Assembly (NCBI GenBank): GCA_037305845.1
Contig: CP147778.1
Span: 2,368,001-2,432,000 of the forward strand
DNA from: Candidatus Freyarchaeum deiterrae
GTDB taxonomy: Archaea; Asgardarchaeota; Jordiarchaeia; Jordiarchaeales; Jordiarchaeaceae
Direction: 5' to 3'
DNA: 64,000 nucleotides
Each line of letters begins with the position of its first letter. Position 1 is the first letter of the stretch. Shown piece by piece: positions 47,632 through 51,864 of this stretch. A model generated the notes under the pieces. It was not told the origin of the DNA. It did no database searches and saw only the letters and a list, made by a program, of their open reading frames with translations. Made by a program: the position numbers and the translations under genes.

Positions 47632-50600
47632 ATGAAACTCTCGAAAAAAACCATAGCCATTTTGATGATTCTCGCATTCACGGCTACCTTTATTGCAGGT
47701 TTCACCATCCTCCCTCAAAATATCTATCCTGCAAAGTCAATGAACACTGGTGGCCTGGACTCAACCTCAAAAATCGACCCATACCTAGTATCAATGGTAA
47801 ATAGTGGAGGGTTTCCTAATTCTTATTCCACCAAAATGATTATTGTATTCGGGGAAACAAACTTCAGCTCTGGATTGCAGGCACTGAATTCAACGTTTCC
47901 CGATATTGTAGTCGAGAAAGTTTATGATTACATACCCGCAGTAGCTATAGAGTCGCCTCTCAGCAATGTCCAAAAAATTGCTTCTCTCTCTCAAGTAAGT
48001 AAAGTTTGGTACGATTATCCGATTCACCTGGAACCTAAGAGTTTGGTGCAATCTGGTGTGTCCAGCAAGGAAGTAGCTTACGACCCGACGATCGAAAATC
48101 TGTGGAGTATGAATCTTACCGGAAGCGGCGTTATTGTAGCACTTCTAGATAGCGGAATAGATGCAAGCCACCCAGACTTGAACAATCTTGGTAACAATAG
48201 CAATACAACCAAAGTTGTAGAAAGCGTTTCTATGGTAGAATACGACCCATTTACCTATGATTTAAACGGACACGGAACATATGTGGCCGGTATAATAGCT
48301 GGAACCGGAAACGCTTCGAATGGAACTTATAAGGGAATCGCGCCTCAAGCGCAACTTTTTAATGTGAAGGTTTTCGATTCGGAAGGATTAAGCTTCTTTT
48401 CCTGGATACTCTCGGGGGTAGAGTGGAGCGTTAGCCACGGGGCAGACATAATCGTTGTACCATTCGCTGGGCCAGGTTACCCAGACGACCCTCTATGCAC
48501 CGAGATAGATAAAGCCGTTGAATCCGGGGTGACAGTAATAGCAGCGGCAGGCGACGATGGTCCCGCTTACACCAGCGTGGGTTCACCGGGAATGGCGCTA
48601 AGTGCTATAACCGTAGGAAACTACAACAAATCCTCAGGACTTGTATGCTCTAATAGTAGTCGAGGACCCAGTTTATACATGTGGATGGATCCCGATATAG
48701 TCGCTCCGGGTTACAATATTACCTCATGCAGAGCTTCGCTGCCAAATCTGGGGGTGAACATAAGCCTACCCTCTCTTCCTGCAGGTGGGTACGGCAACCC
48801 CCTTGATGGAAATTACACCACTGCGACCGGTACTCTTGCGGCGGCAGGTTATGTGGCGGGAACTGCGGCTCTTCTTCTTCAGGCTTTTCCCTTCGTGACT
48901 CCAGAGACGTTAAAAGTGGCTATGATGAAAACCGCCATAGATCTGGGTGAAGATTCTAACACTCAAGGTGCGGGTCTTCTGGATGGTAATGCGACCTACA
49001 ACTATTTGAGAGGTCTTGAAGGCCCTATAGGAAACATTTCCAGAGCATCTACCCCCGCTTTACCTTATACCGGGTTCTTCTTTACGAATGATGCAACTTC
49101 TCAACTGTCAACTTACTGTATAGTTGGAACTTATGGAACTTTTGTGGGCATGCAGACCCAAAATGCCACATCCGGTCTTAACAATACTCATTTACTGCAG
49201 GGGCGATTCGGCGTAAAATACAATGGGCTCGATAACGTTACTCTGTTTTTGCTTACAACACTATATCGAGAAATGCACTCAACAACGATACTCGGTGGAG
49301 ATTATCAAAGGGCGCTAACCGTGCTGGGCAATGGAAATATTCTCATAGTCATAGCCGTAGATTGCTGGAACAACACTAACGCAACTGGAGCATTCAGAAT
49401 AACAATAAACCTAATAAATATCGGGAGCACCGCTCTCAATAATGTATCCCTATTAACTTGCTGGAACATTGACCTTTTCCTAAACGAATCAAACCATATA
49501 AGTGATAACCACGCACAATACAATTCTACAGACGATCTGATTTATGCTAACGATAGTAACTACGATTATCCCACAGAGCAAATATTTGTGGGATTCAAGG
49601 GCAACATCTCCACAGCTCACGAGGTGGGTGATAACAACACTGTTTTCGAAGACTTTCTAAATGATCAACTAAACAACACCTCTAATTACAATGGCAGCAT
49701 TGGTCTCGCAATGAAATGGAATCTAACAGGACAATTGGATCCCGGGAGCAATGTTGGTTTTGTGGGTGCTCTCGGAGTTGGCGGAGATTACGGCCAGATG
49801 CTGGATGCTGCCAACAATATATTGGCGGCGGGGGTGCAAAACTCTACAGATCTGTGTGTTGTTAATGCCTCTATTGAGCGTACGGGTAAAGTCCATACAC
49901 CCTTTCCCTCAGAAAGCCTCATTCTAAACATTGGAAATACGGTGACGAATGCTTCAGTTTTCTTTTTTTCAAATAAATCGACAGATGAAAGCAGCATTTT
50001 CTATACAGAAATATTCCAGTATCAGAACCTTCAACCATTCGCATTTAGAGAAATATCAACGAGTTGGGAACCCACAAACAGCACAGTGTACACCGTGGGT
50101 TGGGTTGTAGCCGAGCTTTCAAACTTTTTGACACCGGGACAACTACTCTCAGGCAACCTCTCATTCAATTTGAGCGAAACCTATCTATTGGATAATTTCA
50201 TAATTAGGGACGTTTTCATCGGCACATCTCCCAACTGTAGTATCCTCTTCCCAACCCTTATTCCCAATAAACCCTTCGAACTCAATTTCCCCCTAGATTT
50301 TGCATACACCAATCTGACAGTAGTGAGTACCTACAATCTGGAAAATGTTCAAGTAGCATACTCTGGTAATGCAACCCAACTTTTCAATGGAACTCCCACA
50401 GTTTTAATTAGAGGCGACTACGCGAACATCCTGATAACTCTTAACGCCACGTATTTCCCACATCCGGGCTACTACAACGGCATAATTAACATTACCGCTA
50501 ATGGAGCACTCATAGGAAGTGTGAATATCAGTTTTAATCTAAGATATCCCGAAGGTAGATTATTCTTTGACAGTATTCATAATGAAATAAGTTTAACCAG

Positions 50601-51864
50601 TTGGAATAGACGACTCTACAGCGTCTACAGTGGCTACTTCCAATTCTCCGAAGAAATCTTTAACCAAGGACACGACATAGACGAAATTCCCTTCCTCACC
50701 GAATACAACAGCACACTCCTCTCATTATACGACGGAATAATAATATTCGACCCATTAAAAGGCTTCACCCCCCAAGAAAACGCCACTCTCCACAGCCTCC
50801 TTAACAACGGGACAGGCATTCTTATTTGTGTAGATCCAGAAAACAATTGTAATTGGACCGCGGTGAACATGATAACACAACCCTACGGAATTACTGTCGT
50901 TGCCAACCAAACGGAACCAATAACAATCACCTCGGCTAATATGTCTCAATCACACCCTGTTACCAGTAACCTTAGCAGTATAGTAATGGACTCCGCAGCA
51001 ATTCTAGATGTTAATACAAGTCTGGGAGCGGAAGCGCTTGCCAATACTACTAATGGAACCGTAATAGCCGCTGCGAATGTGGGTTATGGAAAACTTCTGG
51101 TTATAGGCGACTCCGCAATTTTTGACAGCCGCCACTTAAACCTTTCAGACAACTCTCTCCTTGCGTCTAACGCTATTAACTGGCTACTATCAAACAGAAT
51201 GATACTCAATGTGGAGTTATCATTGCCCAATCCTGACGGCAAACTCTATATCGGAGACAATTTTTATGCTTCAATACATGTCACCGACAGGTACGGGCAG
51301 GATGTTTCAAGTAATATAACCATGTATACAATTTTCGTTTTACCCAACGGAACCATTTTTCCGATGTTTGCATTTCACTACCAAGGAGGATGGTATACCA
51401 CCTTCTTCTTCACATACTTTACAAATGTAACTGGGAACTACAGCATGGTCATCTACGCACATGCTAACAACTATACCACCACACACTACGTTTACAATTT
51501 CGAAGTGCAACCCGCCCGGCTGGCTTTAGCTCCGCTCTTTTATTTCCCTCAAGCATCCAGGGACTATGCGATTTTCGGATTTACCTTCTTAGGAGTAATA
51601 GTCTCGATATTCACCTCAGCCTACCTATTAGAAAGGAGGCGGCTCCGCAAGAAAACACTAATACCTGAACTCAATAGAGAACTTAGAAACACCCTAAGAA
51701 ACTCCGTGAATGAGGTAAGAGCGGTTAACAAGGAAATCGACCGAGAATTATCCAAAAAAGACATAGACGACTTCGATAGAATCAGAATAATACACGAAAA
51801 ACTCGGAAAACTCAGAAGGGCACTCGACAAAGCCAAAAACGTAGCAGAACACGTAGGTGAGTAA
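47632..51864 (+). CDS. Membrane-anchored S8 subtilase homolog lacking the catalytic Ser, with GIFT/ABC-aux-like domain, TM helix and cytoplasmic helical tail
   Basis: Signal peptide, I9-like prodomain, LLDSG and GHGT, but TGTLAAAGYVAG in place of SGTSMA; many N-x-S/T sequons; C-terminal TM. Confidence 0.85.
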   Translation: MKLSKKTIAILMILAFTATFIAGFTILPQNIYPAKSMNTGGLDSTSKIDPYLVSMVNSGGFPNSYSTKMIIVFGETNFSSGLQALNSTFPDIVVEKVYDYIPAVAIESPLSNVQKIASLSQVSKVWYDYPIHLEPKSLVQSGVSSKEVAYDPTIENLWSMNLTGSGVIVALLDSGIDASHPDLNNLGNNSNTTKVVESVSMVEYDPFTYDLNGHGTYVAGIIAGTGNASNGTYKGIAPQAQLFNVKVFDSEGLSFFSWILSGVEWSVSHGADIIVVPFAGPGYPDDPLCTEIDKAVESGVTVIAAAGDDGPAYTSVGSPGMALSAITVGNYNKSSGLVCSNSSRGPSLYMWMDPDIVAPGYNITSCRASLPNLGVNISLPSLPAGGYGNPLDGNYTTATGTLAAAGYVAGTAALLLQAFPFVTPETLKVAMMKTAIDLGEDSNTQGAGLLDGNATYNYLRGLEGPIGNISRASTPALPYTGFFFTNDATSQLSTYCIVGTYGTFVGMQTQNATSGLNNTHLLQGRFGVKYNGLDNVTLFLLTTLYREMHSTTILGGDYQRALTVLGNGNILIVIAVDCWNNTNATGAFRITINLINIGSTALNNVSLLTCWNIDLFLNESNHISDNHAQYNSTDDLIYANDSNYDYPTEQIFVGFKGNISTAHEVGDNNTVFEDFLNDQLNNTSNYNGSIGLAMKWNLTGQLDPGSNVGFVGALGVGGDYGQMLDAANNILAAGVQNSTDLCVVNASIERTGKVHTPFPSESLILNIGNTVTNASVFFFSNKSTDESSIFYTEIFQYQNLQPFAFREISTSWEPTNSTVYTVGWVVAELSNFLTPGQLLSGNLSFNLSETYLLDNFIIRDVFIGTSPNCSILFPTLIPNKPFELNFPLDFAYTNLTVVSTYNLENVQVAYSGNATQLFNGTPTVLIRGDYANILITLNATYFPHPGYYNGIINITANGALIGSVNISFNLRYPEGRLFFDSIHNEISLTSWNRRLYSVYSGYFQFSEEIFNQGHDIDEIPFLTEYNSTLLSLYDGIIIFDPLKGFTPQENATLHSLLNNGTGILICVDPENNCNWTAVNMITQPYGITVVANQTEPITITSANMSQSHPVTSNLSSIVMDSAAILDVNTSLGAEALANTTNGTVIAAANVGYGKLLVIGDSAIFDSRHLNLSDNSLLASNAINWLLSNRMILNVELSLPNPDGKLYIGDNFYASIHVTDRYGQDVSSNITMYTIFVLPNGTIFPMFAFHYQGGWYTTFFFTYFTNVTGNYSMVIYAHANNYTTTHYVYNFEVQPARLALAPLFYFPQASRDYAIFGFTFLGVIVSIFTSAYLLERRRLRKKTLIPELNRELRNTLRNSVNEVRAVNKEIDRELSKKDIDDFDRIRIIHEKLGKLRRALDKAKNVAEHVGE

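Follow-up and report, generated by a model that had tools for sequence, protein, structure and literature searches.

What does an archaeal cell gain from a subtilisin-like protein that has lost the residues needed for cutting? This question is raised by a gene of Candidatus Freyarchaeum deiterrae (assembly GCA_037305845.1, contig CP147778.1), which we studied within a window of 64,000 nt, positions 2,368,001-2,432,000 of the forward strand; coordinates are positions in this window unless another locus label is given. The gene occupies 47632-51864 on the + strand as an uninterrupted frame of 1410 codons, and its product, here called the S8-GIFT protein, joins a subtilase (S8) domain to a GIFT domain. 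Our analysis indicates that the subtilase domain is dead and that this condition is old and conserved. It is probable, although well short of certain, that the S8-GIFT protein is a non-catalytic, GldG-like extracytoplasmic auxiliary subunit of the neighbouring ABC-2 transporter, in which the dead S8 domain serves as a binding module.

Loss of the catalytic residues

The S8-GIFT protein contains a complete Peptidase_S8 domain at residues 164-448 (Pfam, E 3.6e-51, all 288 model positions covered). Foldseek comparison of the larger of two structural models, described below, confirms the fold by matches to the subtilisin BPN' family (TMt 0.86-0.89, root-mean-square deviation (rmsd) about 2.8 A). 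Alignment to solved subtilases places the catalytic Asp at Asp173 in LLDSG and the catalytic His at His214 in GHGT, both of which the initial annotation of this DNA had read as intact. The same alignment puts Asp308 in AAGDDG (codon GAC at 48553) at the position of the oxyanion Asn and Leu402 in TGTLAAAG (codon CTT at 48835) at that of the nucleophile Ser, and alignments and codons agree with the two substitutions that had been noticed there. An active S8 enzyme has the Asp-His-Ser triad together with the oxyanion Asn; here the Ser has become Leu402 and the Asn Asp308. Because both of these residues are lost, the subtilase domain is no longer able to cut, and the S8-GIFT protein, as judged from its sequence, is incapable of the serine mechanism. 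The database name "S8 family serine peptidase" is therefore misleading for this dead family.

An ancient and conserved pseudoenzyme

The closest database relatives of the S8-GIFT protein share 42-82% identity with it and come from the Jordarchaeia/"Freyarchaeota" branch of the Asgard archaea, with remoter full-length relatives in Lokiarchaeia, Thorarchaeota and Sigynarchaeota (28-31% identity). None of the 20 aligned full-length relatives has the nucleophile Ser, the residue there being Leu, Phe, Ala, Thr or Gly, and all 20 carry Gly-Asp in place of the Gly-Asn of active enzymes. When 301 genomes of the phylum were searched, the family turned up in many GTDB families. The Ser is missing in 40 of the 41 orthologs from these genomes, the lone Ser-bearing one being a partial sequence, and Gly-Asp stands at the oxyanion site in every one of the 41, from at least seven Asgard families. 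The initial annotation had raised the possibility that orthologs have GTS at this site; the alignment of orthologs that it called for reveals family-wide loss of the Ser and the Asn, in line with its pseudoprotease claim. Two further S8 proteins of this genome are ordinary paralogs in which the AAGN and SGTS motifs are intact, and therefore the organism does make normal subtilases.

In a tree of the S8 domain, built from 95 sequences with the two catalytic columns removed, all 27 dead sequences form one clade (SH-aLRT 99), which shares a larger group with a clade of 31 active S8-GIFT proteins (SH-aLRT 99). Since the dead sequences form a single clade, the catalytic residues were most likely lost once, before the divergence of the lineages that carry the protein. 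Pairwise dN/dS (NG86, orthologs of about 90% identity) is 0.09-0.13 for the whole gene, 0.055-0.09 for the S8 domain, which is among the lowest of the domains, 0.09-0.18 for the prodomain and 0.06-0.11 for the tail. These values, about 0.1, indicate purifying selection and agree with the earlier view that the gene is retained. By these sequence comparisons the S8-GIFT protein is a conserved pseudoenzyme, not a decaying gene. The suggestion that it is kept as a binding, receptor or scaffold protein gains support from the family-wide catalytic loss combined with purifying selection, the binding role itself being one that we infer. A sequencing error at codon 402 was considered and rejected, as Leu or Phe is also found in orthologs of 72-82% identity and the oxyanion change co-occurs. 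Recent pseudogenisation was rejected as well, the frame being intact in more than 40 genomes at a dN/dS of about 0.1.

The conservation of part of the active site leads to the question of whether the S8-GIFT protein is still a hydrolase with a non-canonical mechanism, for example one in which the surviving Asp-His pair activates water or another residue. Most members do preserve Asp173 and His214, Asp308 is invariant, and in a few the nucleophile position is occupied by Thr or Ser. We nevertheless regard such a mechanism as highly improbable, since the nucleophile position varies freely across the family (Ala, Leu, Phe, Thr, Gly or Asp) with no conserved replacement, and some lineages have lost the His or the Asp too (DRDG and SEDG patterns). 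An Asp in the oxyanion hole would, by what is known of subtilisin enzymology, disfavour the tetrahedral intermediate.

Linkage to an ABC-2 transporter

Of the clues to function, the conserved ABC-2 cluster says the most, and the initial annotation made no use of it. In this genome the genes of two ATPases and a permease lie upstream of the S8-GIFT gene and divergent from it. The ABC set adjoins the S8-GIFT gene in 10 of 13 loci, and this linkage spans at least five families. We label the Asgard families or lineages concerned f2 (the sister family), f7 (whose locus is Thorarchaeia-type), f9, f12, f26 and f30. In f12, f26 and f7 the genes form a one-strand operon in the order permease, ATPase1, S8-GIFT and ATPase2, with gaps of 4-7 nt or overlaps, ATPase2 following the S8-GIFT gene directly. 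The S8-GIFT and ABC genes are adjacent in a different order in f9 and divergent in the genus of Ca. F. deiterrae itself; in f2 they are unlinked, yet the same ABC cluster is retained elsewhere in 4 of 4 genomes checked. Directly downstream of the f7 operon, a lineage-specific giant open reading frame (ORF) of more than 2046 aa (L043:13364-19501, +), absent from the window, overlaps the end of ATPase2.

ATPase1 has an N-terminal extension of about 215 aa (46920-47566, -) that resembles the C-terminal, sugar-binding region of TrmB. The extension is conserved with the cluster across Asgard families, and the C-terminal part of Regulator_TrmB is matched by 7 of 9 ATPase1 orthologs (best E 4.5e-9); these 215 aa have no sequence match in the PDB, and the TrmB-like assignment is backed by the Pfam family Regulator_TrmB only.

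We read the S8-GIFT protein as an auxiliary subunit because an operon with an ABC-2 permease and an ATPase is the pattern of GldA/GldF/GldG in Bacteroidota, where a membrane-anchored GIFT protein is encoded together with an ABC-2 permease and an ATPase (PMC5682007). GldG of Flavobacterium (PMC5682007; Hunnicutt et al. 2002, PMC134979) and generic bacterial proteins of the ABC_transp_aux family (PF09822) share this gene-set pattern with the S8-GIFT locus. Unlike GldG, which has no protease domain, the S8-GIFT protein adds a dead subtilase, a propeptide and a long beta stalk. The locus also differs from the GldA/GldF system in having two different ATPases, one of them TrmB-like, and its host is an archaeon without the outer membrane or the gliding machinery of Flavobacterium.

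In the reading that we favour, the dead S8 domain has been kept under strong selection as a binding module, and the protein would act at the transporter as follows. The transmembrane (TM) helix and the GIFT module would sit on the permease, and the tail would make the cytoplasmic contact to the ATPases, possibly through the TrmB-like domain of ATPase1. On the outside of the cell, the cleft of the dead protease would bind a partner, either a peptide or a protein. Removal of a subtilase propeptide is normally autocatalytic, and for that reason the S8-GIFT protein probably still keeps its own propeptide, barring removal by a different protease. The complex with the transporter, binding in the cleft, retention of the propeptide and any cargo are steps that we infer. 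That the cargo might be a glycan or glycoconjugate is a guess, prompted by the TrmB-like domain and by the habits of ABC-2 systems, many of which export glycans.

Several observations weigh against an auxiliary subunit. The genes are unlinked in f2, and in its own genus the S8-GIFT gene is divergent from the ABC genes and not co-transcribed with them. The S8-GIFT protein scores below the gathering cut-off of ABC_transp_aux (PF09822; 26.3 vs 34.7 bits), the best family member reaching 2.5e-10. Asp173, His214 and the invariant Asp308 are kept, which a pure scaffold would not obviously need.

A second conserved neighbourhood suggests a different role. In Jordarchaeales the S8-GIFT gene is always followed by three convergent genes (51898-57014, -, in the window), which encode a TPR protein of 316 aa and two proteins, of 141 aa and 1094 aa, that match no Pfam family. 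This block stands beside the S8-GIFT gene even where the ABC genes are unlinked, and its being kept throughout the order, f2 included, would suit a stand-alone surface receptor or sensor, whose ectodomain binds a ligand and whose tail relays the signal, the ABC-2 genes being merely co-regulated neighbours. In Jordarchaeales the cytoplasmic partners of such a receptor could be the neighbouring TPR, longin-like and solenoid proteins. CspC, an S8 pseudoprotease that acts as a sensor, provides a precedent. The tail is conserved in all lineages examined, its motifs (a basic run, IPELD, D-x-F/I-x-K-I/L-R and a terminal G-E or G-G-V) being kept from Jordarchaeia to f7, f9, f12, f26 and f30, the most distant members. 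We consider a receptor unlikely, however, since among the loci examined the synteny with the TPR, longin-like and solenoid genes was not found outside the order, whereas the ABC-2 linkage reaches across families with translationally coupled spacing, and the tail contains no recognisable signalling domain.

Surface topology and domain organization

The S8-GIFT protein has 59 N-X-S/T sequons, compared with 20.7 +/- 4.1 in shuffles, and all of them lie between the signal peptide and the TM helix; signal peptide, TM helix and tail have none, and the ectodomain is rich in Asn, Ser and Thr. Such a distribution fits a predicted type-I surface protein with heavy N-glycosylation. No STT3/AglB gene is found among its neighbours in the window. 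The very high sequon density, the composition of the ectodomain, the beta-sandwich stalk and the C-terminal anchor would also suit a structural surface glycoprotein, either S-layer-associated or an adhesive stalk, for which the protease fold is a mere stable building block. This is in our opinion quite improbable, because the S8 domain is strongly constrained, with Asp, His and the invariant Asp308 conserved, and because neither a conserved cytoplasmic tail nor operon coupling is expected of a passive surface protein.

Two AlphaFold2 models were built with the family alignment, one of residues 960-1340 and one of residues 40-1239. In the C-terminal model (pLDDT 87), an alpha/beta domain of GIFT type is followed by an Ig-like sandwich and then by a long TM helix, a module of the OST48/GldG type. 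The large model (pLDDT 74, pTM 0.45) runs from a propeptide-like alpha/beta unit through the S8 domain and a stalk of beta-sandwich domains, about 500 residues long, to the GIFT domain, and its top Foldseek matches are unprocessed pro-subtilisins and ProN-Tk-SP (3afg). Prodomain and S8 domain together align to the unautoprocessed pro-subtilisin E 3whi (TMt 0.86). Tk-SP of Thermococcus kodakarensis (3AFG) is matched over the prodomain and the first beta domain as well, but it is an active, secreted enzyme without a GIFT domain or a TM helix. The middle region, residues 461-965, has no Pfam match and no PDB profile match; it holds 30 sequons, more densely than any other part, and is mostly absent from the active paralogs described below. 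The single TM helix and the basic helical tail that the initial annotation had described, in an uninterrupted 1410-aa ORF, are borne out by the ORF, the hydropathy and the model, and the Ig-like sandwich between GIFT domain and TM helix is an addition to that description.

Table 1. Features of the S8-GIFT gene and of the adjoining ABC genes (window positions)
Feature	Coordinates	Strand	Basis
Signal peptide or anchor, residues 1-39	47632..47748	+	Hydrophobic stretch from residue 3; no sequons
Prodomain, subtilisin-propeptide-like, residues about 40-139	47749..48048	+	Alpha/beta model, pLDDT 81-89
Dead S8 subtilase domain, residues 140-460	48049..49011	+	Pfam, PDB alignments, family table, codons
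Beta-rich middle, several sandwich-like domains, residues 461-965	49012..50526	+	Almost all-beta model
GIFT domain, residues 966-1195	50527..51216	+	Model fold and sequence profile, both GIFT-like
Ig-like beta-sandwich stalk, residues about 1196-1307	51217..51552	+	7-8 strands, pLDDT about 87-91
Single TM helix, residues about 1308-1334	51553..51633	+	Hydropathy peak at 1312, model helix
Cytoplasmic tail, about 76 aa, and stop codon	51634..51864	+	Basic cluster, then two conserved helices
AT-rich divergent intergenic region, 65 bp, shared with ABC operon	47567..47631	.	Sequence
ABC ATPase 1, 540 aa	45944..47566	-	Pfam ABC_tran and Regulator_TrmB, 24.3 bits (cut-off 22.2)
ABC-2 permease, 389 aa	44743..45912	-	Pfam ABC2_membrane_3 and ABC2_membrane_2; conserved in cluster
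ABC ATPase 2, 335 aa	43695..44702	-	Pfam ABC_tran

Relation to site-1 protease, OST48 and IFT52

The initial annotation had likened the region from about 50550 onward to the GIFT domain of eukaryotic site-1 protease (S1P, MBTPS1/SKI-1). Both fold and profile match GIFT proteins, namely IFT52, OST48 and S1P. In a Foldseek search of the PDB with the C-terminal model, OST48/Wbp1, aligned over its own whole length, is the best match (E 6.5e-17), followed by the GIFT domain of IFT52, with S1P at rank 40. Structure comparison of the same model gave 24.1 for IFT52 (rmsd 2.1 A, 198 residues, 21% identity), about 21 for OST48 (335 residues including sandwich and TM helix), 18.9 for S1P residues 617-874 (rmsd 2.9 A) and 14-18 for generic GATase1-like folds. 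A sequence profile of the GIFT module finds only GIFT proteins in the PDB (IFT52 E 2e-13, S1P E 0.03, OST48 E 0.9), and both IFT52_GIFT and ABC_transp_aux of Pfam match 25 of 25 aligned family members at E<0.01. Against 1.84 billion representatives, a GIFT-only profile has 12,175 matches, the best 150 of which are S8-GIFT proteins and giant multi-GIFT proteins.

The GIFT domain, the Ig-like sandwich and the TM helix align to the whole of OST48/Wbp1 (6S7T chain G, 6EZN chain G), which has the same layout, but the sequence similarity is marginal, as is evident from the profile E value and from OST48_N, which matches 3 of 25 members (best 2.4e-4). Wbp1 homologues have been reported from Heimdallarchaeia only (Eme et al. 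2023, PMC10307638). The OST48-like module in Jordarchaeia is, to go by the model, a likeness at the level of the fold, and we claim no orthology for it. IFT52, whose GIFT domain is known from 5FMR and 5FMS, differs in being a cytosolic protein of ciliary transport without a protease domain or a TM helix.

S1P consists of prodomains, S8, a P-like sandwich, GIFT, TM helix and a short tail (PMC11231238), and the S8-GIFT protein resembles it in the order signal peptide, prodomain, S8, beta-sandwich, GIFT, TM helix and basic tail. Among PDB entries, a colinear Foldseek alignment that takes in both S8 and GIFT, over about 1,130 columns, is confined to two chains of S1P, 9csd_A and 8uw8_A. Domain order and alignment thus both uphold the S1P-like architecture proposed earlier, a likeness that is architectural and does not imply orthology. 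The differences are considerable. S1P (PDB 8UW8, 8UWC, 9CSD) is active, with D218, H249, S414 and N338, whereas the S8-GIFT protein lacks the Ser and the Asn. A single P-like domain separates S8 from GIFT in S1P, compared with beta domains totalling about 500 aa in the S8-GIFT protein, which, unlike S1P, also has an extra Ig-like stalk and a conserved two-helix tail of about 76 aa. Its partner would be the ABC-2 transporter, as against SPRING/SREBP for S1P.

Other Asgard genomes encode active S8-GIFT-TM proteins of 1220-1320 aa with the triad intact (loci L047-L055). In these proteins S8 leads directly into one beta domain and GIFT; a C-terminal TM helix comes next, with a basic stretch beside the membrane, and many of them end in a cytoplasmic zinc-ribbon tail. 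They look even more S1P-like than the dead protein. They are not consistently linked to ABC genes. Just upstream of the active paralog in L052 is a 1243-aa ORF with non-catalytic residues at the triad positions by global alignment.

The S8-GIFT protein could be an inactivated true ortholog of S1P, a subunit that holds the substrate for an active protease in regulated proteolysis or has a regulatory role there. The comparisons make this very unlikely. Its S8 domain is nearer to Tk-SP (E 3.9e-48, the closest in the PDB) and subtilisin BPN' (1e-32) than to S1P (2e-24), and the GIFT profile favours IFT52 over S1P. Pfam MBTPS1_3rd has no match, and MBTPS1_4th stays below threshold for the S8-GIFT protein (17.2 bits, cut-off 27), although 10 of 25 family members reach E<0.01 (best 1.6e-6). 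For an active Heimdall paralog, the 60 best PDB sequences do not include S1P, and MBTPS1 is likewise absent from its best 120 database matches, which are S8 proteins of Asgard archaea followed by those of Streptomyces. The genome of Ca. F. deiterrae itself has no active S8-GIFT paralog. Pointing the other way, an ESM Atlas feature search ranks eukaryotic MBTPS1 clusters right after Asgard clusters for the S8-GIFT protein (0.86) and at ranks 2-10 for the active paralog (0.93), results which serve as leads only. In sequence terms, then, what the S8-GIFT protein appears to have in common with S1P is an architecture, and we do not claim specific orthology.

A broader proposal is that the Asgard S8-GIFT-TM proteins, active and dead clades alike, and S1P come from one ancestor, and that the GIFT-sandwich-TM module is the prokaryotic source of the GIFT modules of OST48 and IFT52. 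We put this forward tentatively and think it rather doubtful. If it were true, the list of eukaryotic signature proteins derived from Asgard archaea would have to be extended by S1P and some of the GIFT repertoire, and in the dead clade archaea would have reused an S1P-type scaffold as an ABC-transporter subunit.

Comparison with other pseudoproteases and significance

Non-cleaving subtilases are known from other systems. The Csp pseudoproteases CspC and CspA of Clostridioides difficile have subtilase folds, do not cleave and act by binding or sensing, as we propose for the S8-GIFT protein, and PCSK9 is another non-cleaving subtilase that acts by binding (PMC11231238). These are soluble spore or secreted proteins of other lineages, without a GIFT domain, TM helix or ABC partner. 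Membership in the Csp family was rejected on the NCBIfam scores, which are 51.3 bits (cut-off 675) for CspC_non_triad and 57.2 bits (cut-off 1250) for CspBA.

The S8-GIFT protein combines kinds that are already known: a pseudoprotease, a GldG-type ABC auxiliary protein and an S1P-like layout. We found no published description of this family in the literature on Asgard archaea and site-1 protease, subtilisin or pseudoproteases, or GIFT, GldG or IFT52; a recent Asgard structural-clustering preprint mentions OST48 and does not mention S1P, GIFT or subtilisin. The family is a conserved, apparently undescribed Asgard surface component that goes with an ABC-2 transporter of its own, one ATPase of which bears an unusual ligand domain, and it may mark a cell-envelope machine in the closest prokaryotic relatives of eukaryotes. 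It is also a deep, well-dated example of a protease that has presumably turned into a binding protein. The three eukaryotic contexts of GIFT (S1P, OST48 and IFT52) are joined in one archaeal protein family of which active sisters exist, and therefore the origin of site-1 protease and of GIFT modules is open to phylogenetic testing.

GIFT domains also occur in other settings. The genome of Ca. F. deiterrae encodes a stand-alone 439-aa GIFT protein without signal peptide or TM helix (L004:901-2220, -, about G000:C1:1992076-1993395), which matches Pfam IFT52_GIFT with 51.3 bits (cut-off 27.2) and continues with an acidic linker and a C-terminal coiled coil, a cytosolic layout that recalls IFT52. 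In giant metagenomic proteins of 3000-4800 aa (P0239-P0247 and others), GIFT domains close to that of the S8-GIFT protein are repeated in tandem, up to 8-10 times. Within the window, a few genes upstream of the S8-GIFT gene, 40566-41327 (+) encodes an archaeal type IV prepilin/preflagellin peptidase (Peptidase_A24 and Arc_PepC_II).

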